Assembly: GCA_964016885.1 (NCBI GenBank)
Contig: OZ024742.1
Span: forward strand, 255,006,001 to 255,070,000
DNA from: Eledone cirrhosa
Taxonomy: Eukaryota
DNA length: 64,000 bases
Direction: 5' to 3'
Made by a program: the position numbers and the translations under genes. A model generated the notes under the pieces. The model did not search any database. It saw only the letters and a program-made list of their open reading frames with translations, and was not told where the DNA came from. Below are positions 12,001 to 57,895 of this stretch, one piece after another (the stretch's first letter is position 1; each line of letters opens with the position of its first letter).

Positions 12001-15000
12001 TTTTTACTTACTTACTTAAATTTTCACTCCAACTAATTAGTTTCTGCAATGGGATAAAGACAGTTACATAATCCAACTGTCGAGAATTCATTGCGTCATC
12101 AGGGAGTCTATTCTCAGCTGAGTCTCCAGGCAATGCGCGGACACTGGCGGCTCATATAAAAATAATAATAATTCGGTAGAAAGAACAGCTGGCGAGGACT
12201 GGATTCTATGTACTGAAATTCTCACTGCTTCTAGTCAAATGGCCGATTCTAAAGAATCAATCACGTGACATAGAGGCTAGTTAGAAGGAATGGGATGGTA
12301 AGATGACTGACGCCTACTAACACCCCCAAAAAAATTTAGAAGTGGTTTTGGCAGGTTTGCTCGACAAATCAGTGATTTGGAGATAAATATAGATAATTTA
12401 ATATATCAACTAACATAGGCGCACAGATGCACGTCCATGCCAGCAAATACACAGGTTATGTCATAGTACCTAGGTGGTTCAATGCAGGAGGGTGCAGAAC
12501 AATAATATAAAAGACGTAAAATAAGAAAATATTTTTTAAAGAATTTTTAAAAAATTTTTTACTTACTTACTTAAATTTTCACTCCAACTAATTAGTTTCT
12601 GCAATGGGATAAAGACAGTTACATAATCCAACTGTCGAGAATTCATTGTGTCATCAGGGAGTCTATTCTCAGCTGAGTCTCCAGGCAATGCGCGGACACT
12701 GGCGGCTCATATAAAAATAATAATAATTTGGTAGAAAGAACAGCTGGCGAGGACTGGATTCTATGTACTGAAATTCTCACTGCTTCTAGTCAAATGGCCG
12801 ATTCTAAAGAATCAATCACGTGACATAGAGGCTAGTTAGAAGGAATGGGATGGTAAGATGACTGACGCCTACTAACACCCCAAAAAAAAATTTAGAAGTG
12901 GTTTTGGCAGGTTTGCTCGACAAATCAGTGATTTGGAGATAAATATAGATAATTTAATATATCAACTAACATAGGCGCACAGATGCACGTCCATGCCAGC
13001 AAATACACAGGTTATGTCATAGTACCTAGGTGGTTCAATGCAGGAGGGTGCAGAACAATAATATAAAAGACGTAAAATAAGAAAATATTTTTTAAAATAT
13101 TTTTAAAAAATTTTTTACTTACTTACTTAAATTTTCACTCCAACTAATTAGTTTCTGCAATGGGATAAAGACAGTTACATAATCCAACTGTCGAGAATTC
13201 ATTGCGTCATCAGGGAGTCTATTCTCAGCTGAGTCTCCAGGCAATGCGCGGACACTGGCGGCTCATATAAAAATAATAATAATTCGGTAGAAAGAACAGC
13301 TGGCGAGGACTGGATTCTATGTACTGAAATTCTCACTGCTTCTAGTCAAATGGCCGATTCTAAAGAATCAATCACGTGACATAGAGGCTAGTTAGAAGGA
13401 ATGGGATGGTAAGATGACTGACGCCTACTAACACCCCAAAAAAAAATTTAGAAGTGGTTTTGGCAGGTTTGCTCGACAAATCAGTGATTTGGAGATAAAT
13501 ATAGATAATTTAATATATCAACTAACATAGGCGTACAGATGCACGTCCATGCCAGCAAATACACAGGTTATGTCATAGTACCTAGGTGGTTCAATGCAGG
13601 AGGGTGCAGAACAATAATATAAAAGACGTAAAATAAGAAAATATTTTTTAAAAAATGTTTAAAAACTTTTTTACTTACTTACTTAAATTTTCACTCCAAC
13701 TAATTAGTTTCTGCAATGGGATAAAGACAGTTACATAATCCAACTGTCGAGAATTCATTGCGTCATCAGGGAGTCTATTCTCAGCTGAGTCTCCAGGCAA
13801 TGCGCGGACACTGGCGGCTCATATAAAAATAATAATAATTCGGTAGAAAGAACAGCTGGCGAGGACTGGATTCTATGTACTGAAATTCTCACTGCTTCTA
13901 GTCAAATGGCCGATTCTAAAGAATCAATCACGTGACATAGAGGCTAGTTAGAAGGAATGGGATGGTAAGATGACTGACGCCTACTAACACCCCAAAAAAA
14001 AATTTAGAAGTGGTTTTGGCAGGTTTGCTCGACAAATCAGTGATTTGGAGATAAATATAGATAATTTAATATATCAACTAACATAGGCGCACAGATGCAC
14101 GTCCATGCCAGCAAATACACAGGTTATGTCATAGTACCTAGGTGGTTCAATGCAGGAGGGTGCAGAACAATAATATAAAAGACGTAAAATAAGAAAATAT
14201 TTTTTTAAAAATTTTAAAAAAATTTTTTACTTACTTACTTAAATTTTCACTCCAACTAATTAGTTTCTGCAATGGGATAAAGACAGTTACATAATCCAAC
14301 TGTCGAGAATTCATTGCGTCATCAGGGAGTCTATTCTCAGCTGAGTCTCCAGGCAATGCGCGGACACTGGCGGCTCATATAAAAATAATAATAATTCGGT
14401 AGAAAGAACAGCTGGCGAGGACTGGATTCTATGTACTGAAATTCTCACTGCTTCTAGTCAAATGGCCGATTCTAAAGAATCAATCACGTGACATAGAGGC
14501 TAGTTAGAAGGAATGGGATGGTAAGATGACTGACGCCTACTAACACCCCAAAAAAAAATTTAGAAGTGGTTTTGGCAGGTTTGCTCGACAAATCAGTGAT
14601 TTGGAGATAAATATAGATAATTTAATATATCAACTAACATAGGCGCACAGATGCACGTCCATGCCAGCAAATACACAGGTTATGTCATAGTACCTAGGTG
14701 GTTCAATGCAGGAGGGTGCAGAACAATAATATAAAAGACGTAAAATAAGAAAATATTTTTTAAAGAATTTTTAAAAACTTTTTACTTACTTACTTAAATT
14801 TTCACTCCAACTAATTAGTTTCTGCAATGGGATAAAGACAGTTACATAATCCAACTGTCGAGAATTCATTGTGTCATCAGGGAGTCTATTCTCAGCTGAG
14901 TCTCCAGGCAATGCGCGGACACTGGCGGCTCATATAAAAATAATAATAATTTGGTAGAAAGAACAGCTGGCGAGGACTGGATTCTATGTACTGAAATTCT

Positions 15001-27000: not shown

Positions 27001-28012
27001 ACTTACTTAAATTTTCACTCCAACTAATTAGTTTCTGCAATGGGATAAAGACAGTTACATAATCCAACTGTCGAGAATTCATTGTGTCATCAGGGAGTCT
27101 ATTCTCAGCTGAGTCTCCAGGCAATGCGCGGACACTGGCGGCTCATATAAAAATAATAATAATTTGGTAGAAAGAACAGCTGGCGAGGACTGGATTCTAT
27201 GTACTGAAATTCTCACTGCTTCTAGTCAAATGGCCGATTCTAAAGAATCAATCACGTGACATAGAGGCTAGTTAGAAGGAATGGGATGGTAAGATGACTG
27301 ACGCCTACTAACACCCCCAAAAAAAATTTAGAAGTGGTTTTGGCAGGTTTGCTCGACAAATCAGTGATTTGGAGATAAATATAGATAATTTAATATATCA
27401 ACTAACATAGGCGCACAGATGCACGTCCATGCCAGCAAATACACAGGTTATGTCATAGTACCTAGGTGGTTCAATGCAGGAGGGTGCAGAACAATAATAT
27501 AAAAGACGTAAAGTAAGAAAATATTTTTTTAAAAAATTTGTTAAAAATTTTTTACTTACTTAAATTTTCACTCCAACTAATTAGTTTCTACAATGGGATA
27601 AAGACAGTTACATAACCCAACTGTCGAGAATTCATTGCGTCATCAGGGAGTCTATTCTCAGCTGAGTCTCCAGGCAATGCGCGGACACTGGCGGCTCATA
27701 TATAAATAATAATAATTCGGTAGAAAGAACAGCTGGCGAGGACTGGATTCTATGTACTGAAATTCTCACTGCTTCTAGTCAAATGGCCGATTCTAAAGAA
27801 TCAATCACGTGACATAGAGGCTAGTTAGAAGGAATGGGATGGTAAGATGACTGACGCCTACTAACACCCCAAAAAAAAATTTAGTAGTGGTTTTGGCAGG
27901 TTTGCTCGACAAATCAGTGATTTGGAGATAAATATAGATAATTTAATATATCAACTAACATAGGCGCACATATGCACGTCCATGCCAGCAAATACACAGG
28001 TTATGTCATAGT
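1..28012 (-). repeat. Tandem array of ~556-bp monomers (~50.4 copies, open at the window start), each carrying a hammerhead ribozyme; retrozyme-like satellite
   Basis: CTTCTAGTCAAATGGCCG recurs at 1, 557, 1113, 1668, 2224, 2780, 3336, 3892 and onward. Monomers differ by only a few SNPs and A/T-tract indels. No ORF of 60 aa or more in the ORF track. Confidence 0.98.
355..436 (-). ncRNA. Type I hammerhead ribozyme (monomer 1; repeated every ~556 bp)
   Basis: Minus strand reads ACUCC CUGAUGA C-GCAAUG [AAUUCUC GACAGUU GGAUUAUGU AACUGUC UUUAUCC] CAUUGC-A GAAAC UAAUUA GUU^ GGAGU. Stem I 5 bp, stem II 6+7 bp, stem III within the palindrome AACUAAUUAGUU, cleavage triplet GUU. Confidence 0.85.
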
Positions 28013-28263
28013 CCTCGCCAGCTGTTCTTTCTACCGAATTATTATTATTTTTATATGAGCCGCCAGTGTCCGCGCATTGCCTGGAGACTCAGCTGAGAAT
28101 AGACTCCCTGATGACGCAATGAATTCTCGACAGTTGGATTATGTAACTGTCTTTATCCCATTGCAGAAACTAATTAGTTGGAGTGAAAATTTAAGTAAGT
28201 AAGTAAAAATTTTTTTAAAATTTTTTAAAAAATATTTTCTTATTTTACGTCTTTTATATTATT
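28010..28263 (+). repeat. Inverted partial monomer terminating the array (reverse complement of monomer positions ~275-529)
   Basis: AGTCCTCGCCAGCTG...CTTTTATATTATT is the reverse complement of the monomer. The junction has a 3-bp AGT microhomology at 28010-28012. Confidence 0.95.
28103..28184 (+). ncRNA. Hammerhead ribozyme in the inverted terminal copy
   Basis: ACTCC CTGATGA (28108-28114) CGCAATG...CATTGCA GAAAC (28166-28170) TAATTA GTT GGAGT. Confidence 0.85.
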
Positions 28264-28274
28264 ATTATATATAT

Positions 28275-30900
28275 CATCATCATCATCATTATCATCGTTT
28301 AACATCCATCTTCCACGCTTGCATGGGTTTGGATGGGAGTTTTCCCACTTGAGGCAAGATTGGTTGTCTTGCTCGTGTATGAGTGTCTGGTGGGTTTTCT
28401 ACTGCTGGATGCCCTTCCTAACACCAACCACGTTTACAGTGTGGACTGGGAGGTTTTTACCGTGTTACCTACACGGTCACATTACAGCGTGGACTGTGTT
28501 TTATTTTCGTGAAACCTACACGACCTCATTTATTTCGGACTGGATGTTGTGGTACCAACATAATTTTACATCGAAAGGGGTGGTGTATGGGTTGGGGGGG
28601 GGGTTATTTTTGTTAGAGGTGCCTACTGACTGTAGGTTTCGCTTTGTACTTAAGCAAGGCGGGTCTTCTGTATTACTGTGTAGCGCCAAAGATCTCGGTC
28701 CAGTGACATTGTCTTGGAGAGGTGTAAGTGTGTGAGGTTGGAATTTATCAAGTCGTCCCAGGTTTTTCTGGGTCTGCCTACTCCGTGGCTACCGTCTATT
28801 TTTATCGTCCTGCACTTTTTTATACGGCTGTCGTCTTTCATGCGCATCACGTGACCATACCAACGTAGCCTTCTCTCGAGTAAACAACATCTGATTCCTC
28901 TTCTCACTTAGTTCATTTATGCTTTTCCGTTCACGTATATTACTATTTCACATCCAACGGAGCATGCAAGCTTCGTTCCTCTCCAGTCTGCGTATATCCT
29001 CTGCACACAATGCCCAAGTCTCACTGCCATGTAACATTGCTGTTCGTATGCAGGCATCTAACAGCCTGCCAATCATTTTTAGAGAGAACCCTTTAGCGGC
29101 CAATAGTGGTATAAGCTCTCTGAACTTTTTCCATCCCGTTCTGACTCTTGCTACGGTACTTTCAGAGCACCCTCCACCACTGCTTGGTTTACTATCCGGG
29201 TGACCATAGTGTGTCCCACCGTTCCAGATGCTTTCAGCATTTCAGCAACTATTTCCGAAGGCCCAGCCGCCTTGCCTGACTTCATGTCTTTGATCGCCTT
29301 ACTTATTATACTACCTTCAGCTTGCACTGCTGGTCCCTCTATTGGATCGATGTGGGGGGAGACTGTCTTTCTCCCAATTATTTTCCTCTTTTAGTAGCCT
29401 TTCGTAGTGACACTTCCAAGCTACCTTCTTATCAGCGTCAGTGATGGCAAGTATACCATTATCATTAAGGACACACTTCTCCCCGACAATATCACGGTTT
29501 TCCTTGACACATTGCCTAGCAATCCTGAACACCTCACGTTTTCGGTCCTCGCGTTGTAGAACATGCTTGAACTTTCTTTCCTCTGCTTCCCTTCTTGCGA
29601 AGTACACATGTCTCCTAGCTTCCCTCCTTGCCACTTGATAGTCTTCTCTACTTCCCCCATCCCGCTATACTTTCCAAGCCTGCTGTTTGGCCTTGATCGA
29701 CTCCTCCACCTTACTGTTCCACCACCACATTACTCTTCTCCTGCCTATAGGTCTGCTCCAGCCACAGATTTCATCTGTCGCCTTCAGCAGGTTAGCTTTC
29801 CGGAATTCCCACTGTTCCTCTATATTGTACGACTCTAATTGCTCTTCCTTACTGTCAAAAGCATCAAGTAATATGCTTTTAAATTTATTACTGGCTGTGG
29901 GGTCCTTTAACTTCCATATTTTTCTCCTGAGGATAGTCCTCCTCTGTTGTCGGATACGTCTCGTCCTGACTATGAGGTCGCTAACTATGAGGCTATGTTG
30001 GGAGGTGCATTCTTCATGGGGGAGGGATTTGGTGTTTACAACAGACACTCTGTCTCGTCTTCTGGTAAGGATATAATCTATCTGACTGGCGTGTTCCCCT
30101 GATCTGTAGGTGATCAAGTGATTGTCTCGTTTTTTGAAGTTTGTGTTACAGATAGTTAGATTATTTGCGTCACAGAATTCCAGGATTCTGGAGCCTTCTT
30201 CATTTCTAGTACCAAACCCATAGCCTCCATGGATTCCGTCATAGCCGTCACAGTGTTGTCCAACGTGACCATTTAGATCGCCAACAATAATTATATAGTC
30301 ACTGTCGGTTATTTGGGAGGTAATGAGCATTAAAGTCTCATAGAATCTGTCTTTTATAATGCCAGGCAGTCCGGATTGGGGTGCATATGCAGATATAATT
30401 GTCACATTAGTTCTATTGAGGAGAAGTCTATTTACGTCTATTATCTTATCTGCCCACTTTTCTGCTACCATGATTCCCACTCGACCCAGTCCATTGTCAT
30501 TTCCCACCCACAAAAGGTTATAGCATCGTTCTTTACCCACAATGAATCTAGCAGACCCACCCCTCCAACTGGTCTCTTGAATACAGCAAACATCAACCTC
30601 CTTACGTTCAAGCATCTCTACAAACTCGTTAGAGCAACCTTTTAAGGTACCTACATTCATGGTACCAACTCCGAAGTTTGGGATTGCATTTGGTGGGTGG
30701 GGAGGACAGGGCGCAGGGAGGGGTGAGGGAGATGGGGCTATGTTAGTCGTCCGCGGCCTAAATAAAGAGGAGTCATTGCATTCTCGTCCAGCAGCATGAG
30801 GTGAATTTGTCTTTGGCATTGTCACTGAGTGTCCAGATTTTTCAGACTCTCCAGAATTCCGTAGTCCATCCATCATATCGAAAGGCAACCAGGTCTAAAC
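28275..30900 (-). mobile_element. RTE-clade LINE, decayed, RT catalytic core internally deleted
   Basis: APE endonuclease ORF 29665-30888; C-terminal RRLRWYGHVMR...GRPRKTW at 28650-28907; (GAT)n 3' tail near 28275-28295. The sequence jumps from early RT to GGGCSES...ARVRTGW near 29195. Confidence 0.9.
29665..30888 (-). pseudogene. APE-type endonuclease domain of the RTE LINE
   Basis: Motifs GTMNVGTL, CCIQET, ISAYAPQ, VGDLNGHVG, SQIDYIL, SQHSLIV. Confidence 0.9.
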
Positions 30901-31539
30901 TTAAGTGATAACATGGGCCGCTGACTTATGATTGGTCCAAGTAATAATAATGGTAGTGAGTGGGGGAGGAATCTGGGGTAGTTAGCAAGAAGGTTATAAA
31001 ATAAAATTCACGAAATTTTGGCCATAATCGAACGAGCATATAACTGTAATAAGGGAAGATTTGTGGGATTTTAAAATACAAGAAGATTATTTGAATGATC
31101 AAACAGAATTATCGAATAACATTGAAAAAGAAGAAAACAAAAAGGAAAAGGTTGTATTCTGGACGATATGATACAGATAGATGAATGGACAAGGGGACAG
31201 GGAGAGACGAGAAAATAGAATTCGTACATTACATTTCACAGAAGATCGAGCGAGCGATGTAGCCAAGAATATGGGTCGACAAATTTAGTTTATGTTTATT
31301 TTATGTTTGAAGAGAGAGGGATGGGATTGAGAGAGAGCCAGCAGGCAAGTATACAATGTATGAGGGGGGGGGGGGGGTAGTAGGGAACAGGAAGGTTAAT
31401 TTATGAAATCCTAGAATTTCGACAATATTTAAACGAGTGAGGAAGTTATTTTATAAAAATAAAAATTGAGAGAAGTTTATAGAATAAAATCCACAAATTT
31501 TGGGCCTTAATTGGCGAGCATATAACTAATATATATATA

Positions 31540-31895
31540 TAACAGCTGATCACCTTTGAGCCTAAATAGATAAAGCAAACTGTTCTTCTGAGTTTAGCAT
31601 TATTTGCAAATATTCCAATATCATTATCAATATTTAAACACATCTACTCAGTTTTTGCAATGTTTAGTTCTAGGCCAACAGTGTGTGCTTTGTATATTAT
31701 GTGATTTAAATGATCTTGTGCTTTCTGTATTGAATGCATAATTAAAACAATGTCATCTTCGAATGCCAGGTTTGATAACTTGATACCAGATATAAGCTCA
31801 ATGCCGTCTTCAGGATGAGCTCCTTTTTTTTAAATGTGGTCGATAATGATGAAAAATATATACGTTGCTAAAGTATCTCCTTGTAATATGCCTTT
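31540..31895 (-). mobile_element. Old non-LTR RT fragment
   Basis: Minus-strand translation gives GILQGDTLATYIFFIIID and LAFEDDIVLI (degenerate QGD and xADD motifs). Confidence 0.6.
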
Positions 31896-32537
31896 ATCTA
31901 CTTAGGCTCAAACGTCATCAGCTGTAATTGCACTGGTGAGGAAGACATACTTCACAGAAGAGTATTAGCCTATAAGGCAATGAATGACCTTCAAGCGATT
32001 TTGAAAGCAAGCATTGTATTCATCTGAAGTTACAGATGAATAATACACTATGTCTACCAGTGTTTCTTTATGGCTGTGAGACACGGATCGTGCATGCGCA
32101 AAAACTAGCAGTGAACACATTTCACACAAATTGTCTGTGCATCATCTGTGGCGTAACATACTAAGATCGTATAATAAATGCAAAAATTTCCGCATGCACA
32201 GTGCAGTCATATCTCTATGCTCAGGTTTGAAACCGGCGATTGACATGGATTGGTCATCAATTCTGTCATCCAATTAACAACTAACAACTTCTATGCTGAA
32301 CAGGAGGTTGCTGCAAGAGACAAAGACCAAAGACCACATTCCAAAGAATGTTCACAAAAGAACTGAATGCATAAGTCATCAGAAGGCCAATGATAGAAAT
32401 GCTTGGGCAGCTTTTATTTTATCTCCCCCATGACATTATGATATTATTTTAATATGGTTTATGTATGTGCACATATTTCTCTGTGTTCTATTATTTCATT
32501 TGAAATAATAAATATTGATTGATTGATATATATATAT

Positions 32538-32866
32538 ATATAATAGAAAACGAAAAATCAGTGATGCATCTGAACTCAATTTATTGTGTGTTACAATTGT
32601 TTCGCCGGCGGACAGCTCGAGACGTGATCGTTGTGTGGATCTGTCTGATTCTGGACCCGCAGGTTCGACGGATACGTCTAATGATTTCGGAGCATGACGC
32701 GATCATTGTGTGGATCTGTTTGATTCTGGACCCGCTGGTTCGACGGACACGTCTAATGATTTCGGAGTATATTCTCTCACGTCTCGAGCTGTCCGCCGGC
32801 GAAACAATTGTAACACACAATAAATTGAGTTCAGATGCATCACTGATTTTTCGTTTTCTATTATAT
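32538..32866. repeat. 90-bp inverted repeat (32538-32627 / 32777-32866) enclosing a 75-bp-period direct duplication; PLE-pLTR-like fold-back element
   Basis: Arms are reverse complements by eye; direct copies at 32626-32693 and 32701-32768. Confidence 0.9.
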
Positions 32867-32939
32867 CATACTCTGCTCTGTATGAGCATAGAGTGCTCAA
32901 CCGGCATACCGCCTATGGAAGCATCTTAGCTACCATCAG

Positions 32940-33005
<66 letters not shown>

Positions 33006-33079
33006 GTGTGTATGTTAAAAGTAAAGAGAAATAAAGCAAATGACACAGTACATATATATATATGTACATATAGCATCAT

Positions 33080-34745
33080 TATCATCATGGTTTAATGTTA
33101 GTCTTTCCACACTTGCATAGGTTAGATGAGTTGTCCCATTGTGAGACAAGCCAGATCAGATGACTGTGTTTTATTTATACAGCGCTGATTTTGGACTGGT
33201 TTCTATGTTTGGATGCCCTTCCTAATGTCAACCACATTTACAGTGTGTACTGGGTGCTTTTTGTCATGACACCTACATGACCACTTTACAGTGAGGACTG
33301 GGTGAATTTTGTTGTGCTACCAACGCCAACAATTTACAGTGTGGAGTGTGTGCTTTTAGTCGTGGCACAAAAATTACCACTTTCCAGTGTGAACTGGGGG
33401 CTAGGGTACATCTGGCAAAGGTGCAGTGTGAGGGTGTGGATGGTGTATGGAAGAGGGTAAGAAAGGTAACGTAAAGGAAGGTGGTGAATACTAGATGTGT
33501 GCTTCAACACTTACCCATGGAAGGTGAGTCTTCTATATTAATGCATAATTCCAGAGATCTCGATCCTGTATCATGGCCTTTGGGAGGTTCAAGTTTACAA
33601 GGTCAGCTGTTATCACCTTATCACAAGGTATCCTAGGTCTTCCTACTCCATAGCTTCCATCAACTTTGAGTGCCCTGCACATTTCTATGCAGCTGTCATC
33701 CTTCATATGCATCACAAGTCCATACCACCACAATCTTCTCTCCTGGTGAGACAACTGCAGGAGAGGTATTTAACTAAGAGTAAGCCATTATATCTATCAG
33801 TTGTGGATCTAGTGAAGGCCTTCAACAGGGTCCCATGCTCTATAATCTGGAAGCTATGTGTAGACAAATGACTTGTAGGGGTTGTGCATGCCATGTATAG
33901 AGGAGCAGCCAGCATAGTGAGAGTTGGCAATGATTATTGTGATGAGTTTGAAGCACAGGTGGGAGTCTACCAGGGATCAGTCCTCAGCCCGCTTCTGTTT
34001 ATCATTGCCCTTTAGGCCATCATTGAGGAGTTTTAAATTGGCACTCCAGGGGAGCTCCTATTTGCTGATGACCTCTGTGCTCATAGCTGAATCTGCAGGA
34101 AAGTTAGTGGCAACATTTCAAGCATGGAAGAAGAACCTAGAGTTGAAAGGCCAAAAAGTAAATTTAGCAAAGACAAAAATCCTAGTAAGTAGGAACGAAG
34201 ATTATACCATCAGGAAAATGACATTGTTTGATGTATCATAAAGGGTTTGGCATAAATTCCATAAGGTGCATTCAATATAAACTATGGATGCACAAGTGAT
34301 GTAGTGGGATTGTAGGCAGGCTAATAGAAAAGATAAATTTTAAATGTAGCAGATACACTGGAGAAATGAGCACCAATAGCACACATAAAATAGATTTTCT
34401 CAGCTGCCAGGGGATCTCCATAGAAGTTGTTGACAGCATTTACTACCTAAGCAATCTAATTAGTAGTGGGGTGGATGTGCTGAAAGTTTGATAGCTAGAA
34501 TAAGAACAGGCTGGAAGATGTTTAGAGATTACCACTGCTAACAACAAAATGGTATTCTCTCAGATGGAAAAGTAGACTCTATGATACGTCTGTGCAATCT
34601 GAAATGTTATATGGCAGTGAAACATGGGCCTTGACTGCATGCAGAAGACCTGCGTGGCTAGAAAGAAATGAGTTGAGTATTCTCCAATGGATGTATAATG
34701 TTAGTGTACATAAACGACATAACATAAGCAAACTGAGAGAAAAAC
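33080..34745 (-). mobile_element. RTE LINE with 5' inversion (3' part minus 33080-33745; RT part inverted on plus 33746-34745)
   Basis: Minus ORF QERRLWWYG...GRPR plus 3' UTR; plus-strand decayed RT from VRQLQE through QGSVLSP to LREK. Confidence 0.8.
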
Positions 34746-35140
34746 AATGGCAGTGACTGCAGAGGACATGCGTTGACTGGAGAGAAATTAAGCAACCATG
34801 TTTCGTTGGATGTGCAATGTAAATGTGAGAGAAAGGTAGAGCTTGAATAAGCTGAAAGAGAAGCTGGGTTTAAGAGGAATCTGAGATGGTGTGCAGGAGA
34901 GAACACTGCATTGGTATGGTCATGATGGGCATGGACAATGACCAATGGGTGAAGAATTGCCAGAAAATCCCAGTGGAAGGAAGCCGCAGTTGAGGAAGTC
35001 CAAGAAAGACCTGGGCAGAGATTGTAAAGAGATGACGAAGGAACATGACAAGTGGAAGGATGCCATACTGAAAAGAACCTGTCCTACTCATGCAAGCATG
35101 GAGAAGTGAACGTAAAAGCGATGATGCAGATTATGATGAT
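34746..35140 (+). mobile_element. RTE LINE 3' fragment
   Basis: Homologous to the 3' end of the 58095-60320 copy; ends in a GATGATG tail. Confidence 0.75.
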
Positions 35141-35149
35141 GAACATCAT

Positions 35150-35900
35150 CATTATTTTACATCTGATTTTCTCTTCTCACAAGGGTGGGACGAGTCCTCT
35201 TCAGCACAGCATCTCTCCATTTCTCATGGTCCTTCGTTATCTTCTCTCTGAGCTTTAGTGATATAAAGTCAGTGCTCACCACCACCGCCATGTTTTCTGT
35301 AGTCTTCCTTCCACTGGGATTACTTGGTACTTCTTTACCCTTGCTTGGTTGTTTATGCACATTGGCATTGCACATCTATTAGAGCATGCTATGCTTTCTT
35401 CATTTCTCTCCAGCCTTCGCATATCCTCCACAGTTGCTGCCCATATCTCACTACCATGCAGCATCGTGCATCTCACACAGGCATTCTACAACCGACCTTT
35501 CATTCACAGGGAGAAACCCTTCATTGTCAACAGAGGAAGCAGCTCCGTAAACTTTTTCCACCCTGTCCTTATTCTAGATTCTATGGTCTCGGAGTATCCT
35601 ACTCACTTGCTAATTGGTTCACCTAGATATCGGAAGCTATCAACCACCTCTATAGATCCTACCTGCATTTGAAAAATTTGCCTATCACTAACACTTCTAC
35701 TATCAATTTTGCCTGAACATCTACTGCTTAAAAAGTTTTCCTTTCCTGTTAGTTTGCCTGCTTTCCCACTATACCTCACGTGTACCCAATATTTGCATTG
35801 TGTACATCTTATAGAGTTTATGCCTTTTCTACATATCGAGCATGGCCATTTCCATGGTGGAATCAGAGTCTTGTACTCTTTTGTACTTATCAATACTTTA
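35150..35900 (-). mobile_element. RTE LINE 3' fragment
   Basis: KWPCSICRKGINSIRCTQCKYWVH, VVDSFRYLG, MLHGSEIWA. Confidence 0.85.
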
Positions 35901-35999
35901 GATGATATTTGTTTGAATACATATATGTATATATATATCATATATGTGTATATATATATATCATCTATGTATATATATATCATCTATCTATATATATAT

Positions 36000-36505
36000 C
36001 ATCATTATCATCATTGTTTTAACATCCACTTTCTCTGCTAGCAAAGGGTTGACAGGCCTACATAAACCAAACCAGTACTGAAGTGGAGCCTCTGTTCTCC
36101 TACACAAGCCAGGCACTTGTATCTTGCTAATGTATGGTTTCACGTTCTACCGAGTGCAGAGGAGGAGTATTCATGTCTTTCACATACCTGTGGGTCCTCC
36201 TAAACTTTTGTTTTTCAAGATTTCTACAGCTGGATGCCTTTCCTATAATCAACCGCTAAAGAGGCTGTCATATTCTTGACAGGACTGAAGATTCATCAAA
36301 ACTCTTTGTTTGAGAAGTTTTCTATGGTTGGATGCCCTTCCTATCATCAACCACTTTACAGCATGTACTGGGTGTATTTATTCTTTATATCACCGAACAC
36401 TAGGGAGGCTGTCATGTTCTTGACATGACTGAACTGTCCTTCCAACACTTTGTTTGGTAGGCTCTCCATGGGTGAGTATCCTTCCCATCAGTAACCACTT
36501 CACGG
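36000..36505 (-). mobile_element. RTE 3'-UTR / RTE-dependent SINE-like fragment
   Basis: CATCAT tail followed by GTTTTAACATCCACTTTCTCTGCTAGC, and GGATGCCCTTCCTA...AACCACTTTACAG motifs shared with 28290-28450 and 33080-33300. Confidence 0.65.
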
Positions 36506-36529
36506 GGGTATGTGTGCGTGTGTGTGAGT

Positions 36530-36615
36530 GTATATATATATATATATATATAAAAACATATTATATATATATATAAACATATTATATATATATATAAACA
36601 TATATATATATAAAC

Positions 36616-36694
<79 letters not shown>

Positions 36695-36718
36695 ATATTA
36701 TATATATATATATATATA
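36530..36718. repeat. (TA)n microsatellite with TAAACATAT interruptions
   Basis: Direct reading. Confidence 0.95.
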
Positions 36719-36915
36719 TTTCGTTTCTGAATTTGTTTAGCAAGATTCTTTATCTGAAAACATGTGTTGAAACCGATATTGTTATACTTTGGGAGGGTCA
36801 TGTTGCCAATAAGAAACACACGCACCAGTTGATTTCACTTCAATTTATTACAAATTAAATTTATAAATTTCCGGTTGGTTGGTTGGTTCCACAACCAGAT
36901 GATTGTTCATATATT

Positions 36916-36958
36916 GTCAAAGTTCTTTCGTCACACATTCTGTGACCTCTTCTGTGAC
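36916..36958 (-). ncRNA. pLTR hammerhead, core-mutated copy (CAGAAGA)
   Basis: GUCA CAGAAGA G-GUCACA GAAUG UGUGAC GAAAG AA CUU UGAC. Confidence 0.6.
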
Positions 36959-37153
36959 TGGGGATTCTTTTCTTTGTTTTTGTGCCTCTCCTTTGTTCTG
37001 TCCTACGCCATCTTGTTTTTGTGTGTGTTGTGTGCTTACTTTGCGCATGTGTCACATCCGGATGCCTGTGTGTGTTTATATTTGTTTATTTATTTGTTTA
37101 TTTACATGTTACTGGTTGGTTGTTTGTTCTATGTGTGTGTTTTCATTTTGTCC

Positions 37154-37807
37154 TTAATTGTAAGTTGTAATGTTGCTGTTCCATTCATGTTTTCTATTTA
37201 ATTTTGGTTGGAGTTCATTTATGTGTATTGCCTCTGTGATTTTTGCGTCTTTTCTGTGTGTAGATTCTATTTTTATTTCTATGTTCTCTAATTTACCCTT
37301 ATGTTCTATTTTAGCATGTTGGTGGAGTACAGATGATTCTTTACTATCTTGAAGCTCTCGCCAATGTACATTTATCCGTTCCCCTTTACTATGAGCTGTC
37401 TCACCTATGTACACTATATTCTTATATCTACATTGTCCTTCAGTACATCTTATGCTATATACTACATTTCTAGTTTTACAGTTAATATGGGGGCTTAATT
37501 TACAGATTATACATTTGTTATCTATACAGGGAGGTCTTTTAAAAGGGTATGTATTGCTAATAAGTGTTTTTATGGAGGTACCTGGTCTTTCTACTATCTT
37601 AATATTGAGTTTATGTTTATCTAGGGCCCTTCTAAATGTGTAAGCTAATTCAACTCTAGGGGTTGTATCGATGAACATTACACTCTGGTATTTATTGCTA
37701 TCATACCATGAATTTATTCTATTAACCTTATTCCTAGTTATTTCTATTCTATTCCAAAATGTGCTTCTATACGAGGGGCAGGTCCCATTTGTATCATTAT
37801 TTACCAT
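37154..37807 (-). pseudogene. PLE linker Zn-motif and GIY-YIG endonuclease
   Basis: VVYSIRC-x-C-x-YIGET, R-x3-H, EAIHI, LN. Confidence 0.9.
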
Positions 37808-37894
37808 GTTTTCCTATTTGGTTCTGGCTCCTCTATATACTCTGATTTTATCTCACTGATTGTAACCAGAGAACTGCATTTGGTGGATGAAGTG

Positions 37895-38563
37895 TTATAT
37901 GTTTCTCTCTAGTTCTTTGGGGTTGCACATGCGGGACACGTTTCTCATCACCCGTACCAAATCCGCAATCATTATGTTGATTTTGGTATGGTCCGAAACA
38001 GCTGACTTTCGGTGGATCATATATTTGGAAGTCATGGGTTTGGCATAAGGGGAATGGAGGATTTGTTTTTTGTTATTAATGGTATCTAACCAGAGCGCTG
38101 TGTCTAGTACAGGTAATCGAAGGTTGGGGTGTTTGCTTGGGTAGTCTATAGTAACTCTTATACTCTGGTGGATGGAGTTAGCTATTTGCTGGATGCTTTC
38201 CATGGTGTTTTTCTCTAATTCCTGACTGTTCTCTAGTGGGGATGTTTTTACTACGATGCTTATATCATCAACGTAGCGGGAGTACATTATCAGGGTTAAG
38301 GGGTTGCTCTCTTCTAATTGTTCTTTAAGTTTAAGTTTAAGTCTACTGTCCCACCATACCATGAATAGGTTAGCTATGTCTCCTGCAATGCTAACACCAA
38401 TGGTTGCTCCCTCCTCTTGGGCATATGTTTTTCTATTAAATTTGGACATATGTTCCTTAAGGGTTAATTTTATACTGGCTCCCACCGCATGTGCAATCAT
38501 TTTCTTTAGTTCATCGTGGTTTTGGGGGGGGGGGTCCGTATCGCTCTGGTCTACCCGTTCCAT
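37895..38563 (-). pseudogene. PLE reverse transcriptase (C-terminal motifs and thumb)
   Basis: QEEGATIG, RYVDD, LPVLDT, YAKPM. Confidence 0.9.
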
Positions 38564-38753
38564 CTAATGTATGGGTTTTCTTGGCCATTGAAGTAATGGT
38601 AGGTGGTCTGCCTCTTGCTGGTCTTGTAGGGCACAGGCTGCTAAGGCCATATGTATCTAGATAATCATTACTATAGGTAAGTTTAAGTAGGGGTCCCAGC
38701 TCACTGGTATCAATCCTACGGAATTCAAAATTGCTCTCACTGATCAGTTCTAC

Positions 38754-38971
38754 GCCCCATCATTGAAATGTCCCCAGATATATGTGACAGCACGGAGGAT
38801 CTCCTCGGCAGAATCGGCGAGAGTAACCGATATAGGGACCTAACAAACTGCATAATAAGTAGTATGAATGTTGTGTCTCTGTATCCATCTATTGACGTAG
38901 ATTTTGCTGTGGAGAAATGCGTAGAAATGATCAGTGAGAGCAATGTTGAATTCCATGGGATTGATAGTAGT
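38754..38971 (+). pseudogene. Inverted PLE RT motif-A fragment
   Basis: ISSMNVVSLYPSIDV; its last ~50 bp are an inverted duplicate of 38703-38753. Confidence 0.8.
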
Positions 38972-39790
38972 ATGTATATATATATACATACATGCGCACA
39001 TATATATATATATGTACGTATGGATTCACCGAACATTTATTATAATGCTCGGTGTGTTTGTAAACAAACATCCCGAATTAAGCCGTACAGTGTCTAGCAA
39101 CCATCGTTGCTCATTTGTTCAAACCTGACAAAGGAAGGCTGTACTAGTTTCAAGCTTATTAGCTATCGTCAGCAACGTATACCTTCCAGCCAGATGATTG
39201 AACGTCTGAAAGTATATACTTTCCTTATGCATATTACAAACACACCGAGCATTATAATAAATGTTCGGTGAATCGATACGTACATATATATATATGTGCA
39301 TGTATGTATATATATATACATACTACTGTACGTCTGTATACATATATGTATGTACGTATACATACTTATATTTAAGTAACAGCCGTACTAAGAGTGAGAA
39401 ATGAAATTTTGTTTCATTTTTTCCGTTTATCGTTTCCGGTACCGCGGCTGATTAACTCACTCGATATGCAAATTAGGCTGCTCAGCCGTTAATATGAATA
39501 AGGAAAGTATATACTTTCAGACGCTCAATTCTCTGGCAGGAAGGTCTACGTTGCTGACGATAGCTAATAAGCTTGAAACTAGTACAGCGTTCCTTTGACA
39601 GGGTTGAACAAATGAGCAACGATGGTTGCTAGACACTGTACGGCTTAATTCGGGATGTTTGTTTACAAACACACCGAGCATTATAATAAATGTTCGGTGA
39701 ATCCATACGTACATATATATATATGTGCATGTATGTATATATATATACATACTACTGTACGTCTGTATCCATATATGTATGTACGTATAC
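38967..39790 (+). mobile_element. Non-coding HHR element (~429-bp period, partial tandem) with an inverted 5' copy; retrozyme or non-autonomous PLE
   Basis: 39234-39372 repeats at 39663-39790; 38967-39236 is the reverse complement of ~39489-39755. Confidence 0.8.
39548..39590 (+). ncRNA. Minimal type I hammerhead ribozyme (inverted copy at 39136-39178, minus)
   Basis: ACGUUG CUGACGA U-AGCU AAUA AGCU-U GAAAC UA GUA^ CAGCGU; palindromic stem III ACUAGU. Confidence 0.85.
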
Positions 39791-39814
39791 ATACTTATAT
39801 ATATATATATATAA

Positions 39815-40530
39815 TATTTCGTTTCTGAATTTGTTTAGCAAGATTCTTTATCTGAAAACGTGTGTTGAAACCGATATTGTTATGCTTTGGGAGGATCATG
39901 TTGCCAATAAAACACACACACACCAGTTGCTTTCACTTTAATTTATTATAAATTAAATTAAAAAATTTCCAGTCGGTTGGTTGGATTCACAACCAGACGA
40001 TTGTTCATATATTGTCAAAGTTCTTTCGTCACACATTGTGTGACCTCTTCAGTGACTGGGGATTCTTTTCTTTGTTTTTGTGTCTCTCCTTTGTTCTAGA
40101 ATAGAAAATAGAAAACATGAATGGAACAGCATCATGACAACTTACAATTAAGGACAAAATGAAAACACACACACACATAGAACAAACAACCAACCAGTAA
40201 CATGTAAATAAACAAATAAATAAACAAATATAAACACACACAGACACTCGGATGTAACACATGCGCAAACTAAGCACATAACACTCACAAAAACAAGGTG
40301 GCGTAGGACAGAACAAAGGAGAAGCACAAATACAAAGAAAAGATTCCCCAGTCAGTGAAGAAGTCACAGAATGTGTGACGAAAGAACTTTGACAATATAT
40401 GAACAATCGTCTGGTTGTGGAACCAACGAACCGGAAATTTATAAATTTTATTTATGATAAATTGAAGTGAAAGCAACTGGTGCGTGTGTTTCTTATTGGC
40501 AACATGACCCTCCCAAAGCATAACCATATA
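39815..40530. mobile_element. Pair of PLE pLTR copies in divergent orientation (39815-40096 minus; 40097-40530 plus), same family as 36718-37200
   Basis: High identity to 36718-37200; the plus copy starts with the NRKHEWNS...TYN* coding tail; flanked by (TA)n. Confidence 0.9.
40014..40056 (-). ncRNA. PLE pLTR minimal hammerhead with intact core (mutated copy at 40351-40393, plus)
   Basis: GUCA CUGAAGA G-GUCACAC AAU GUGUGAC GAAAG AA CUU^ UGAC. Confidence 0.8.
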
Positions 40531-40534
40531 TGTT

Positions 40535-40665
<131 letters not shown>

Positions 40666-40720
40666 GTGAGGTTTTTTTTACAAAATGAAAAATAACCGAG
40701 GTGTCCTACACGAGTGAAAG

Positions 40721-41012
40721 TATAAAGAAAAAGAGATGAAATCGAAAATGCAACTGGAGTCTTATTTTTTTTTTAAATATATATATTTATTTGGTTCCTT
40801 TACCGGTTTCGCAGTTCTTCTGCTTTTCAAAAGGTGAGTTGAGATGGAGGGTCTGTGGTTTTTCTCCCATCAGATGTGAGAAAAACCACAGACCCTCCAT
40901 CTCAACTCACCTTTTGAAAAGCAGAACTGCGAAACCGGTAAAGGAACCAAATAAATATATATTTTTTTTTAAAAATAAGACTCCAGTTGCATTTTTGATT
41001 TCATCTCTTTTT

Positions 41013-41019
<7 letters not shown>
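40721..41019. repeat. ~300-bp near-perfect palindrome centred at 40872, one hammerhead per arm
   Basis: Arms are reverse complements with small indels; centre CATC-A-GATG. Confidence 0.92.
40910..40944 (+). ncRNA. Minimal hammerhead, U3-A8 core variant (partner at 40797-40834, minus)
   Basis: CCUU UUGAAAA GCAG AA CUGC GAAAC CG GUA^ AAGG; the minus copy has loop II AAGAA. Confidence 0.75.
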
Positions 41020-41047
<28 letters not shown>

Positions 41048-41087
41048 AATATATAAACATATTATATATATACATAGATATATAAAC

Positions 41088-41169
<82 letters not shown>

Positions 41170-41180
41170 AATATATATAC
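41016..41180. repeat. (TA)n microsatellite
   Basis: Direct reading. Confidence 0.95.
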
Positions 41181-41431
41181 ACGTGTGTGTTTGTGCGTGT
41201 GTATACTTACATATACACACACATAGAAATATCTAGATTACACTTAAATAAGAAGAACGTGCCAGAAGACTTAATTTCTCTTGAAACTGTCCATTCTTGA
41301 GTTCAAAAGACCAGAAATTGTCCACGAGAGTCTGAGAGATTCAATAGAATGAGACACAAGCTAAAATATAAACTAAAAACTGACGAGTGAATACTTCAAA
41401 AATCTGAAATCTTTTTTTCCTCATTTTTTTG

Positions 41432-41433
<2 letters not shown>

Positions 41434-41491
<58 letters not shown>

Positions 41492-41559
41492 GCCATTATT
41501 GTTGTTATTATTATTATTGCTACTACTACTACTACTACTACTATTACCATAACCAACAC

Positions 41560-41595
<36 letters not shown>

Positions 41596-41655
41596 TCACC
41601 ATCACCACCACCAGCATCACTCCACCACAACCACCACTAATACTACTACTAGTAG
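41434..41655. repeat. Compound (ATT)n/(ACT)n/(ACC)n microsatellite
   Basis: Direct reading. Confidence 0.95.
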
Positions 41656-41785
41656 TCATTTATTGTGAATGTTGTTCAATGTAGGTACTTTCTATATAGC
41701 ACCTTATTGTTTGTAAACGTGATGTTTAGAGTAAACATTTGTTCAATTAGCTTATATTTATGTTTTGATGTTTTAGTATGTTTTA

Positions 41786-41836
<51 letters not shown>

Positions 41837-41863
41837 CACACAAACACATATATGTGTGTATGT

Positions 41864-41895
<32 letters not shown>

Positions 41896-41969
41896 GCAGA
41901 TGTATGCTTGCCCCACCCCCATATATATATATATATGTATATATTCATATATATATTCATATATGTATG

Positions 41970-42028
<59 letters not shown>

Positions 42029-42052
42029 CATATATGTGTGTGTGTGTGTGTG
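41786..42052. repeat. (TA)n/(TG)n low-complexity tract
   Basis: Direct reading. Confidence 0.9.
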
Positions 42053-42640
42053 CTTTCTGTTACTTGGCAAAGAATTAACATGTCTAATGAATAAGAACAG
42101 AAGAAAGAGAATGAAAGGTTAATAGAATCTGACAGAAGAAATCAAGTGGGAAGAGAAGGGGAAAGGAAGAAAAACTAAATGAGACATAAACATATATGTG
42201 TGTATGTATATATATGTAAAACATATATATATATGTGTGTGTGCGTGTATTAGTAGTACTGGTGCTGTAATTTTGTAGTGGTGGAGCCGCAAGGAAACAA
42301 ACCTGGCATACACTGTTAAGCGTTTGGCACTAGGAAGGACATCCAGCAGAAGAAAGCAAGCCAAAATGAAATGTATGAGCAAGACATGATCTGCTGACAT
42401 GCCCGTCTCACTTCAGAACGTGACAGCCCTTATAACCTAAAGATGGAAAATAGGCATAATATGGTGATGAGAATATTATATATATATAATTAAATATTGA
42501 TTATTCTCTAATACTTAAACATCTCAATGAATGGATAAAATATATAGATAAAATGTCAATTAGGGAAGCAATATCACATTTTAAATTTAAGTGAAAAAGG
42601 TCTCTTTATGGGAGTATAAGTCAAACAGATCAAAATAAAT

Positions 42641-43073
42641 TTTAGTCTATCTCACTTATATATATCGATCTCCATGCCAAGGTTTCATTTGTGGAAGAAG
42701 TAACTATTGGAAAAGAACAATTTTTGAAGAATTCACAAATTCGTCAGGGGAGTATTCTTCAATTCAAAGAGATCATATTTATCATGAAATTTTACATATC
42801 GTTGCCAGTCCAGCAATTATGTAATTGAAACGTTACATGAACAAATGTCTCTTAATATTAGGAATACATGACAGGCCTACAATACTGTTAGCAATAGCAG
42901 CCAAAAGCCCGTCTGATACAGCTCAACAGATCAGATAAATATGGTCTCATTGAATTGAAGGATACTCCACTAATGAATTTGTGAATCCTTCAAATGTTAG
43001 TCTTTTTTAATAGTTGCTTCTTCCACAAATGAAACCAAGTAGGGAGATCGATATATAAGTGAGATAGACTAAA
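42641..43073 (+). mobile_element. Old fold-back element: ~65-bp inverted repeat (42641-42708 / 43009-43073) with a degenerate hammerhead at 42961-43049
   Basis: CUCCA CUAAUGA AUUUGUG...CACAAAU GAAAC CAA GUA GGGAG. Confidence 0.6.
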
Positions 43074-43122
43074 GTTTTCTTTTTTCATCTATCCATAAAC
43101 AGAGTTTTTTAATTTAAATTAA

Positions 43123-43229
<107 letters not shown>

Positions 43230-43696
43230 GGGAAGAAGACGCACGAGGTGGTAGAAGGTCATGAAATCGCTCCCGTAAGTTTTTGATTTTAACATATTTA
43301 AATCAATTGTGAAATAACAATTCTTAGTACAAATAATGCATAAACAACCGAATCAAGTCTCATAAAATTTTGGATCCATAATATATTGTTATATCGCTCA
43401 AATATTCAATTTTGTATTATATATTTTATATTCAAAAAAGAAAATGGTTATAAATGGAAGAAGAAACCCCCTCTGTCTACACTATATAGAACAGCCAAAT
43501 AACAGCAATTTCACCAACACCAGAAACTTGATACACCACCTACCCCATCACCCCGCTGTGTACACTAAATATAACAGCCAGATGACGGCAATTTCACCAC
43601 TACCACCACCACCAATCCCAGCATCATAATAATAATTACTATTATTATTGTCTCAAGTTTTAACAAAATGTTTAATTTCAATTTTACGGGAATATC

Positions 43697-43840
43697 TCAA
43701 CACATATATTAAACATACGCGACACAAACGTATAGATACTACAGATCAAACAAAACTAGTCTATTCAACACAGATATTAAACATACGCGACACAAACGCA
43801 TAGATACTACATATTAAAAAAAAACTAGTCCACTCAACAA
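43697..43840. repeat. 68-bp tandem duplication (2 copies)
   Basis: TCAACAC...ATTAAACATACGCGACACAAACG starts at 43697 and 43765. Confidence 0.85.
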
Positions 43841-44229
43841 AACTCAGTAACGACAACGCCACCGCCGCCACCACTCCATCCATCATTGCTACCACTACCC
43901 CATCACCGCCGCCACCACTCCTTCATTGCTACCACCACTATTCCCCTGTTAACTTAAGAAAGGGGAAGGTGGCGGTATCACTAGACAAGGGAGAGGCTAG
44001 CAAAAGATATAAATAGATTGACTTAGTGACCTGGCCACCGGCCAAACGTTAACAACTATGGCACTGCTGGCTCCCCCCTTCCTCACCAACAATATAAAAA
44101 GCCCCAGCACCACCACCGACATAGCCAACAACAATAACAGGCAACTTCAGCAAAATGTATATTATATTATTGTAATGCACTGGGTGATTGCTGGCCTTGT
44201 GCCTGGAGTGGAGACAATTATTATTATTA

Positions 44230-47200
44230 ATAATTTCATTCTTAAGCCACGCAATGCTCACATTAAGGAACCACTCATGATAATAACAATTTTTAAAAAA
44301 CAACAAAAAAGAAAACCCCGTGACCAAGAAATACCGGGATGGTGGACGGCGGGGAATAGCCGTGTCTCTAGGGGAGAACGACCCCTCTAGTCTTGGTTGA
44401 CACTCGTTCTAGAAGTGGCAACACGAAATGATTACCCATTGGCGGATAAGGATAAAACGCGACAAAATAAAGTAAATGTCTAATGATGAAATCTCATACC
44501 GGATCGGCCGTCACCCGGGTAAAAAAGGGCCGCGTCCCTCAGAGAGGAACCAGACTGGGGTCGAAAAATCAGCTAATGGTTCAAACCTTCCCATCACTTC
44601 GGAGCTGGAGACCTCCCATAACCGGAATACTCCTACTGTTGGCCCTCCATGCTCACCACCAAGAAATCCAAAGAAAAAGAGAGAAAAATGGTCAAGGGAA
44701 GATAATAAAGAAGTCCTTGAGGCTTTCTACACTGCCATGTACTACCCATCAAATACATCGAATACAGAACAGACATATATCAACTGGAACAAGAAACATC
44801 CCGAAAACAGAGGCTATATTGACAGTAACAAACTAGCCAATATACGAAGAAATATTGTAAAAAAAAAGTTACTAACTGATATAGAAATTGATCAGATCAA
44901 GCTATTAGCACAAAGTCAGCGAAGGGAAAATGAAACATGTGTCAGTGAAAACGAGGTAAATTGTAACACTTCGAATCCCAGGGTTGGGGCGGAATCACTG
45001 GCAACAGAACAAATTAAAGTAAGGATCGAAAAAGTGGAGGGAGTGCATGCTCAAGATGAAACTCCAAATGAAAATAGTGAGATCGTAAATGATAAAGAAA
45101 TGAATGAGAATGAACTTGCCAACTTGAAGGATGAAATTATGATCGAATGGATGAAAATGAAAGAATCTGACATGGGGCAACGAGACACCCTCCCTAAGAT
45201 CCAGAACTCCAAACAGAACCAAAAGATAATACACAAGACTAACATAATTCTCAAAAACATTATCATCACAAACAAACTAAACATTACTGATTTAAATCAT
45301 CTCTATTATGCATCGGCTAAAGTCACCACTCACTTATGTGGAGTGAAGATTAAAAAACAAAGGAATTCCCACAAGAAATCTACTTGGCAAGAGAACATCA
45401 ATCGCCAAATAAACCTTCTCCGATCTGACATAGAAATTTTAACAAACTATAAAGTAGGAGAACATGTTAAACAAACTAAACTTAGAAAATTGAAAAGAAA
45501 GTACAGTATAAAATCAACAAGTGACATAGACATGCTGATGGAAATAATCAAGCAAAAAGTGTCGGCCAAAGCTGCTCGTACAAGGCGCTTTGAAAAACGA
45601 TCTAGATTCTATAAGGACAATAATATGTTCAAAACAACCAAAGAAACTTCTACAGTAAAATTGGTAAGTCAACAATAACTGCTAAATCAATACCACCCAA
45701 GGAGAAAGTGCAAGAATTCTGGGAAAAGATCTGGGCCGAAGAAGAAGTTCATAACATACATGCCCCATGGATAGACAGACAAATGAAAGATACAGCTCAC
45801 CTTGAGGAACAAATATGGGAAAATATAACAATTGTACAGTTGCGCTTGGCTCTAAGAAAAACCAGCAAATGGAAATCCCCAGGAAAAGACAAAATACAAA
45901 ATTTTTGGATAAATGCTTTCACAGAGTCTCATGAGCTGTTAGCCCAACTTTACAATGAAATAGTTAAGGAGCCAGAAAAGATACCATCATGGCTAGTTAA
46001 CGGCATTACATTCCTGCTTCCGAAGAATAATGAGACAAACAATCCCCAAAATTACAGACCGATAACCTGCTTGACCACAATGTATACAATTTTAACATCA
46101 GTCCAAACTGAATACACATATGACCACCTGATAACAAATGACCTATTTCCCATTGAGCAGAAAGGGTGTAAACAAGGCTCATATGGCTGTAAGGATCAGC
46201 TTTTGGTTAACAAAATGATACTGGAAGATTGTCATAATAGACACAAAAATCTATCAATTGCTTTGATATAAAATGCATTCGATAGTTTGCCACACAGTTG
46301 GATTGAAAAATGTTTAGCGATTTTCAAAATATCCCCCGTTGTCAGGAGGTTTTTGTCATTCAGTATGAAGACATGGAAAACGACACTCCTTTTGAATAGT
46401 GAAACAAAATCACTGGAAGCTGGAGAAGTTAATATTAATTGTGGAAACATTCGAAAATTCTTAACCATGCACAGCATGCATCACCCTAAGGCAGATATAG
46501 CTAGAATATATCTCCCATGGAAAGAAGGGGGACGTGGGTTAGTCTTGTTAGACATTGCGTTGAAAACTGCAACAATTGTATTATCTACATATCTAAGGGA
46601 ATCACATGGTTGGATGATCAAACTCGTTTTGAAACACGAAAGCATCAAAAGATGCACAAAGATACAGTAATGGACTACAAATTTCAGAAGTCCCATTTAC
46701 TGCTGAAATGGAAAACACAGAAAAAGCAAAGCAGGTAAAAGTAACTGCAAAGAAAGAACTGCTACAGAAACTGGCTAAGAAATGGCAAGAAAAGCCTCTG
46801 TATGGAAAATACCCAGAACGAGCTAACAATCCTGATGTTGACAAAACTTTAACCCATCAGTGGTTGGCATCCTCTGGACTGAAATCGGAGACTGAAAGAC
46901 TGATTATATCAGCACAAGATCAGTGTCTGCCAACAAAAATTACCAAGCCAACATAATAAAAAATGGATGCAGCCCATTATGCCGTGTATGCAAAAAACAA
47001 CCAGAGACCATTGACCATATAATTTAAATGTGCAGTCCTATAGCGCCAACCGACTACCTAAACAGGCATGACAGAGCTGCACAATACATACATTGGATAA
47101 TGTGTAAGCATTTTAACCTGCCCCATCAAAAGAATTGGTGGAGCATCAACCACCTCCCATACTTGAAAAAGATCACATCTCAATCTTGTGAAACATTAGC

Positions 47201-51437: not shown

Positions 51438-51714
51438 TTACCTTACTTCTCGTAGAGGAAGGATAGTTTCTCCATCCTTTTCACTGCTTGTGGCATCCTC
51501 CGGAAGATGTCCTTATAAATCCTCCTGGAGAGTGCTTGTCGGAAGTCTCCGATGTCTTTGGGGAATTTTTCTTTTAGTGTCGTGTGCGTTTTCTGTGTGA
51601 TGCGAGTGATTTGTATGTGTGGAGGTGGTGTGAACTTTTGGGTTGTTGTGTAGTCTTTTTCTGTGATGCTCGTGTTGTGTTGGATGTAGTGTAATAATTG
51701 GTTGTTGTTCAAAT

Positions 51715-57827: not shown

Positions 57828-57852
57828 TGGTAACACAACAGTTAGTTCACCA

Positions 57853-57895
57853 TACCGAGAACAATTGTTTCACCTTAGCGGATCTTCAGTTCGTA
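57853..57895 (-). ncRNA. Minimal hammerhead in a small element flanked by (TA)n
   Basis: UACGAA CUGAAGA U-CC GCUAA GG-U GAAAC AAUU GUU^ CUCGGUA; palindromic AACAAUUGUU; stem I has a proximal mismatch. Confidence 0.6.

Follow-up and report, generated by a model that had tools for sequence, protein, structure and literature searches.

A tandem array of hammerhead-bearing repeats in Eledone cirrhosa ending in an inverted arm of the Penelope-like type

The tandem array and its monomer

The window, that is the whole 64-kb stretch of Eledone cirrhosa DNA analysed here, is occupied in its left part by a tandem array of ~556-bp monomers (positions 1-28012, ribozyme-sense on the minus strand), which exits the window's left edge and is 28 kb or longer. 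The array consists of pure head-to-tail units, with 49 complete monomers lying between anchors and partial monomers at both ends. Its 50 anchors are spaced 552-556 bp apart and correspond to at least 50 monomers, with identities of 96.8-99.3% to one monomer. Columns of the monomer are numbered from window position 27724 (column 1); the monomer positions used in an earlier note on this DNA equal the column minus 48. Substitutions between monomers (mean 7.2) are located mostly within one A/T tract at columns 345-390, and outside this tract the monomers deviate from the consensus at 0-5 sites. The tract itself, found for example at window 14191-14236, is self-complementary, lies just 3′ of the ribozyme and holds most of the variation.

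The GC content of the array is 0.36-0.375, that is below 50%, and no LTR organisation is present. Examination of the monomer in all six frames revealed no long ORF and no ORF with reverse transcriptase (RT) and GIY-YIG domains, and it is thus not an autonomous Penelope-like element (PLE). There are 38 distinct sequences among the 49 monomers, with groups of identical monomers and repeated blocks, as well as an exact repeat of 3,647 bp at a seven-monomer spacing within the array. The identical blocks and the 3,647-bp repeat clearly show segmental duplication at the DNA level, although assembly could contribute to the pattern.

The hammerhead motif

Each monomer has one hammerhead motif on the minus strand, 50 in the window as called from motif sequence, the last of the array being found at 27570-27651. 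A minimal type I hammerhead is also present on the plus strand in the inverted arm at the array's end (28103-28185), where it gave the best scan score (13), with a predicted cut after 28180. The motif is composed of a 5-bp stem I, the CUGAUGA box, a C.A mismatch followed by a 6-bp stem II with an extra hairpin, the GAAA box, a palindromic stem III and a GUU triplet. Both the CUGAUGA and GAAA boxes are kept in all of the array motifs (50/50), of which 37 are identical and nine have a further change in stem II. GUU is a poor hammerhead triplet. Judged from its sequence, the predicted ribozyme may be weak or dead, given this triplet and the C.A pair at the base of stem II.

The fold of the arm hammerhead has a z value of -2.7, with stems I and II partly formed. 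As a circular molecule, the ribozyme-sense monomer folds better than shuffles (z -4.6), the value for the opposite strand being -2.6 (40 shuffles each). No hammerhead match to Rfam was obtained in the window at the gathering threshold, nor was there one among the 102 matches with E-values up to 5 in the region 27700-44000. In a recent preprint, eight of nine predicted Xenopus dimers did not cleave, according to its available text (bioRxiv 10.64898/2026.07.22.740005). A search of metagenome contigs with a 19-nt hammerhead pattern yielded seven loci, all of which were rejected as short chance matches in DNA of 50-66% GC.

The array end and its inverted arm

The array terminates in a partial monomer (27724-28012, minus strand, columns 1-289) with 287/289 positions identical to the consensus, which forms the 5′ start of the ribozyme-sense arm. 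It is joined to an inverted arm of 254 bp (28010-28263, plus strand), running from column 21 back via column 1/556 to column 323 with its ribozyme-sense directed outward. The inverted arm is therefore head-to-head with the array, which is the PLE-type arrangement. At the inner junction (28010-28012) a 3-nt microhomology, AGT, is common to both arms. The earlier note had the array stopping at monomer position ~241 and joining through AGT to the reverse complement of positions 529 to 275, and these coordinates were reproduced, with the forward array end at 28012 (column 289) being its position 241. An overlap of at least 3 nt occurred in 6% of 100,000 random forward/reverse joins of the monomer, and the AGT microhomology is thus weak evidence by itself. 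If AGT is assigned to the forward side, columns 290-322, exactly 33 nt, are found in neither arm. A hairpin across these 33 nt is no stabler than shuffles (z -0.4).

At its outer end, the inverted arm meets an (ATT)/(AT)/(CAT) microsatellite (28264-28296), the presumed target, whose CAT part also serves as the 3′ tail of the neighbouring LINE. A similar tail was noted at 35976-36018 (family D11). Over its final 7 nt the arm keeps the phase of the adjoining ATT repeat; in a post hoc test, a value of at least 7 was reached at 7 of the 556 monomer positions. An AT-rich microsatellite target, as in PLE insertions, was found at the one array end that lies in the window.

Compared with the 49 monomers, the inverted arm has three differences to the four closest and 12 to the adjacent monomer. 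It is without the four private substitutions and the 4-bp deletion of the adjacent monomer, and its last 186 nt have zero deviations from the consensus; for private changes, four in the adjacent monomer versus none in the arm gives a p value of only ~0.12. At columns 445 and 497, ~98% and ~95% respectively of the contig depth of sequencing run X1 has the other letter, with the arm possessing that of the array, and most family copies in the mapped runs differ from the window's array at several positions. As the arm carries the array's alleles at these two columns, arm and array derive from one template variant and not from two independent insertions.

Four of 22 runs were mapped on one monomer with the stretch corresponding to the outer end masked (14136-14241), and the junction was not among the three joints listed, the listing extending neither to 167 loose ends nor to 1,046 pieces; in so abundant a family, a single junction may also fall under the 1% floor. 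An opposite-strand joint in three reads of run X20, at 14346/14368, is given without orientation and was left aside. In run X4, one contig ends in (TA)n at column 205, not near column 323 or 290. The many loose ends in run X20 were rejected as element ends, since their positions coincide with AATT sites, and they were interpreted as chimeras of a restriction library.

Retroelements of the flank

The microsatellite is abutted by the 3′ end of a decayed non-LTR retrotransposon (28275-30894, minus strand), which we take to be RTE-like, with an ORF at 29665-30894 possessing the Exo_endo_phos_2 domain (E-value 3.8e-08). More decayed LINE-type retrotransposons, recognised by eye from pieces of RT and endonuclease ORFs, lie at 44476-46670, 48011-53341, 53822-55553, and 58406-60308.

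Six other elements with inverted arms, here designated B to G, were identified within 30 kb, five of these having a callable hammerhead strand. Element B (32538-32866, or 32538-32941 at its widest) is a head-to-head arm pair with a half-hammerhead, its 90-bp arms being 100% identical and placed around a 75-bp tandem duplication; it may have a 75-nt extension. Element C (36716-40543, minus strand) is a decayed PLE retaining pieces of RT and GIY-YIG-like ORFs; it has three pLTRs, two of them direct and the 5′ one inverted, with a hammerhead in each. Its hammerhead strand is that of the RT and GIY-YIG-like ORFs and its inverted pLTR is without the ~53-nt tail. The GIY-YIG ORF of this element was uncalled by Pfam, with an atlas lead only (13-18% of cluster members). 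Nested in element C is element D (38966-39803), a non-coding hammerhead element possessing an inverted arm, a 141-bp partial unit and a full 429-bp unit with a ~47-nt tail, as well as a palindromic stem III. Element E (40661-41019), a near-perfect head-to-head arm pair between (TA)n runs, has the U3-A8 variant of the hammerhead in both arms, the left one with a 60-nt tail, while element F (42572-43132) is a head-to-head arm pair with a hammerhead and no tail seen. Element G (56761-57212) has 170-bp inverted arms of 92% identity with no hammerhead found in the scan, and is either MITE-like or a PLE remnant. There is also an isolated degenerate hammerhead-like motif (57850-57895, minus strand) between (TA)n runs and without an inverted arm.

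The scan of the flank detected six hammerheads, namely three in C, two in D and one in F, with none in 16 of 20 shuffled sequences. Elements C and D were called by scan in both arms and F by scan in one arm with the core motif in the other; E was called by eye and B from the 3′ half only, with G left out of the polarity count. All five callable elements are head-to-head with the ribozyme 3′ ends outward, the same polarity as the array end, the chance of which is 1/16 for the four firm elements. The inverted arm of C, D, and E ends 47-60 nt before the end of the sense arm, which is PLE-tail-like, and the arms overlap rather than abut. The outer end of the inverted arm lies at a (TA)/(TAA) run in B, C, E, and F; that of D ends in PLE body sequence instead. 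Two candidate features were rejected, these being a conserved distance from the ribozyme cut to the arm end (54-176 nt across the six elements) and a conserved tail hairpin (z below -2 in one of six). No similarity to the monomer was found in the 36-kb flank, including the pLTR of element C. The neighbours are other families, and what they show is a habit of this genome's hammerhead retroelements, not of the 556-bp family.

Origin of the array end

In the available text of the papers concerned, PLE insertions are said often to show three features, namely an inverted, 5′-truncated copy at their 5′ end, 30-40 bp of tail at one of the two ends, and a preference for microsatellites (PMC8557442). 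Head-to-head is given as the usual arrangement, the tail there measuring 31 bp, and the mechanism proposed is self-priming on an antisense template (PMC3846280). Purified PLE protein nicks preferentially at ATT and extends both target strands, initiating at two internal RNA sites which bound the tail, with ribozyme cleavage being dispensable (PMC11167929). The pLTRs of PLEs are reported to carry minimal dimer-type hammerheads with palindromic helix III, the U3-A8 variant and low in vitro activity, and hammerhead pairs are described 100-700 bp apart on opposite strands (PMC4209133).

The explanation we favour, with a probability of about 0.68, is PLE-mediated insertion of a unit of the non-LTR retrozyme type with expansion at the DNA level afterwards. 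The 556-bp unit would be a non-coding, hammerhead-bearing parasite of Penelope-like retrotransposons, with a PLE RT/GIY-YIG protein acting in trans to nick the AT-rich microsatellite. Synthesis of cDNA would be primed on both target strands near the 3′ end of the unit, at a point ~83 nt downstream of where the ribozyme cuts. One of the cDNAs would give rise to the short inverted arm and the other to a sense arm of one to a few units. The two cDNAs would be joined head-to-head via AGT, and the sense arm would grow to at least 50 copies by unequal exchange or segmental duplication. Direct support comes from the geometry, the hammerhead motif, the abutting microsatellite, the same polarity of the neighbours and the blocks duplicated at the DNA level; from these to a PLE enzyme, an RNA template and a given number of founding units is a step that we infer.

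An origin by retro-insertion had already been proposed in the earlier note and is supported by the head-to-head polarity of the neighbours together with the published descriptions of PLE ends, as is its suggestion of later amplification at the DNA level by the identical monomer blocks. The note had also regarded the 33 nt as lost. These are indeed in neither arm, but a deletion is not required: the two arms of a PLE both begin close to the 3′ end of the unit and join wherever they happen to stop, as seen with the overlapping arms of C, D, and E. Of the twin-priming/PLE geometry which it placed at the ribozyme-sense 5′ end, the PLE-type head-to-head arrangement stands, while twin priming of the L1 style is not needed. 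The statement that ribozyme and inversion independently give the same strand was overstated, their agreement being by itself a one-in-two coincidence. In the available text of PMC3846280, the head-to-head ends of PLEs are attributed to a self-primed antisense template, and the strand of the template is hence not settled independently by the geometry.

Between the start of the sense arm and the outer end of the inverted arm lie only 33 nt of the monomer, a proximity with a chance of ~6%. Twin priming is a concept from L1 elements, in whose 5′ inversions the inverted segment has its outer end, in RNA order, next to where the direct segment begins, leaving a small gap. Such priming on a single RNA, by a PLE or LINE enzyme and with either a linear multimer or a ribozyme-made circle as template, would have the second strand primed at column 323 and the long cDNA halted 33 nt before reaching it, making the 33 nt a true loss. 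It predicts two breakpoints almost adjoining each other along the RNA (33 nt of 556), a feature which PLE-mediated insertion as favoured above leaves to chance, and it could also draw on the LINE 3′ end sitting on the same microsatellite and on the fold of the ribozyme-sense circular monomer, which is better than that of shuffles. However, the arms of C, D, and E overlap and do not abut, and the hairpin across the 33 nt is unremarkable, leaving this alternative unlikely, if the first to be considered. A literature search for Penelope with twin priming returned nothing on PLE mechanism, as judged by title.

It is also improbable that the arm arose by a DNA-level event at the satellite edge, in which a template switch or break repair produced an inverted copy or an in-place inversion through the 3-nt overlap and the A/T-rich microsatellite. 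The array clearly rearranges at the DNA level, and array-specific alleles and short microhomologies are equally expected from such an event. Nevertheless, the adjacent monomer is what a local fold-back would be expected to copy, yet the arm differs from it at the 12 places mentioned and does not have its private substitutions and 4-bp deletion, while an in-place inversion requires a break exactly at the border of array and flank. The shared polarity of five out of five neighbours is left unexplained in both cases, and a DNA-level template switch is disfavoured.

A more doubtful possibility is that the 33 nt absent from both arms represent the PLE tail, the size of the gap matching that published for such tails. 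Both strands would have been primed on one circular RNA made by the ribozyme, with the long cDNA rolling round it and stopping at the protein-bound tail, so that the founding insertion was already a multimer. Were this true, the junction would preserve the trace of a rolling-circle retrotransposition from which a satellite was seeded, and the two RT start sites would be at columns 323 and ~290. Rolling-circle synthesis on a circular RNA, which the earlier note considered possible, is neither needed nor supported here.

An assembly or library artefact, namely a fold-back chimera at the repeat edge, is very unlikely, for although the junction is absent from the joints listed in the four runs and array edges are difficult to assemble, the arm departs in sequence from the adjacent monomer, and what comes after it is unrelated flank and no mirror of the array. 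The junction is real as described and its arm is of the array-consensus type.

Relation to known hammerhead repeats

Among known repeats, the array comes close to the non-LTR retrozymes of metazoans, for which units of 150-450 bp as first described, arrays of up to 62-mers (in coral) and circular RNAs are reported, with PLEs as the likely mobilisers, in the text available of PMC7229834. The preprint extends these to units of 51-972 bp and arrays of up to 300 units (in a beetle), with similarity to pLTRs and expansion by unequal crossover (bioRxiv 10.64898/2026.07.22.740005). As far as these two sources were accessible, they base the link between retrozymes and PLEs on co-occurrence and on similarity to pLTRs, and not on the ends of insertions. 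Like the retrozymes, the array is built of tandem units that are non-coding, low in GC and furnished with a single type I hammerhead. Its 556-bp unit differs in being above the first range while falling inside that of the preprint, and its predicted hammerhead differs in having a GUU triplet and the minimal form typical of PLEs.

With PLE insertions the array end shares the head-to-head inverted 5′-truncated copy, microhomology at the junction, an AT-rich microsatellite target and a minimal hammerhead with palindromic helix III. Unlike these, the array is without an ORF and its sense arm is a satellite of at least 28 kb and not a partial tandem, and no related autonomous PLE was found for the monomer in the 36-kb flank. 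The hammerhead satellites of newts, schistosomes and cave crickets (PMC7229834, PMC4209133; W-elements PMC8490949) are similar in having long arrays with a hammerhead in each unit, whereas an inverted terminal arm is not mentioned for them in the portions of these papers available. Twin-priming inversions of L1 resemble the array end in their near-abutting breakpoints with a small gap; they differ in that no poly(A) tail, L1 target motif or target site duplication was seen at the visible array end and in that the neighbours follow PLE geometry. A search based on titles and the openings of abstracts, mostly of literature outside subscription, found no account of a long hammerhead satellite that terminates in an inverted arm.

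The array end is most likely a further example of a known RNA-born type of repeat, that is a hammerhead satellite with a PLE-type inverted end. Each of the ingredients has already been published and the gain is modest. If the explanation is right, the locus would offer evidence from an insertion end for Penelope-like enzymes as the movers of hammerhead tandem repeats and for the ability of these repeats to seed large satellites. It would also allow a precise prediction of how the array ends on its far side and provide candidate RT start sites.

Occurrence of the monomer in sequencing runs

In run X5, which has a second organism label, three contigs match the monomer (window 14136-14700) at ~92-99% with a depth of only 2-3, these being either trace DNA or a shared low-copy element. 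The monomer family is abundant and heterogeneous in runs X1 and X20, where one monomer matched 1,036 contigs and 5,653 reads respectively, with identities of 88-100%.
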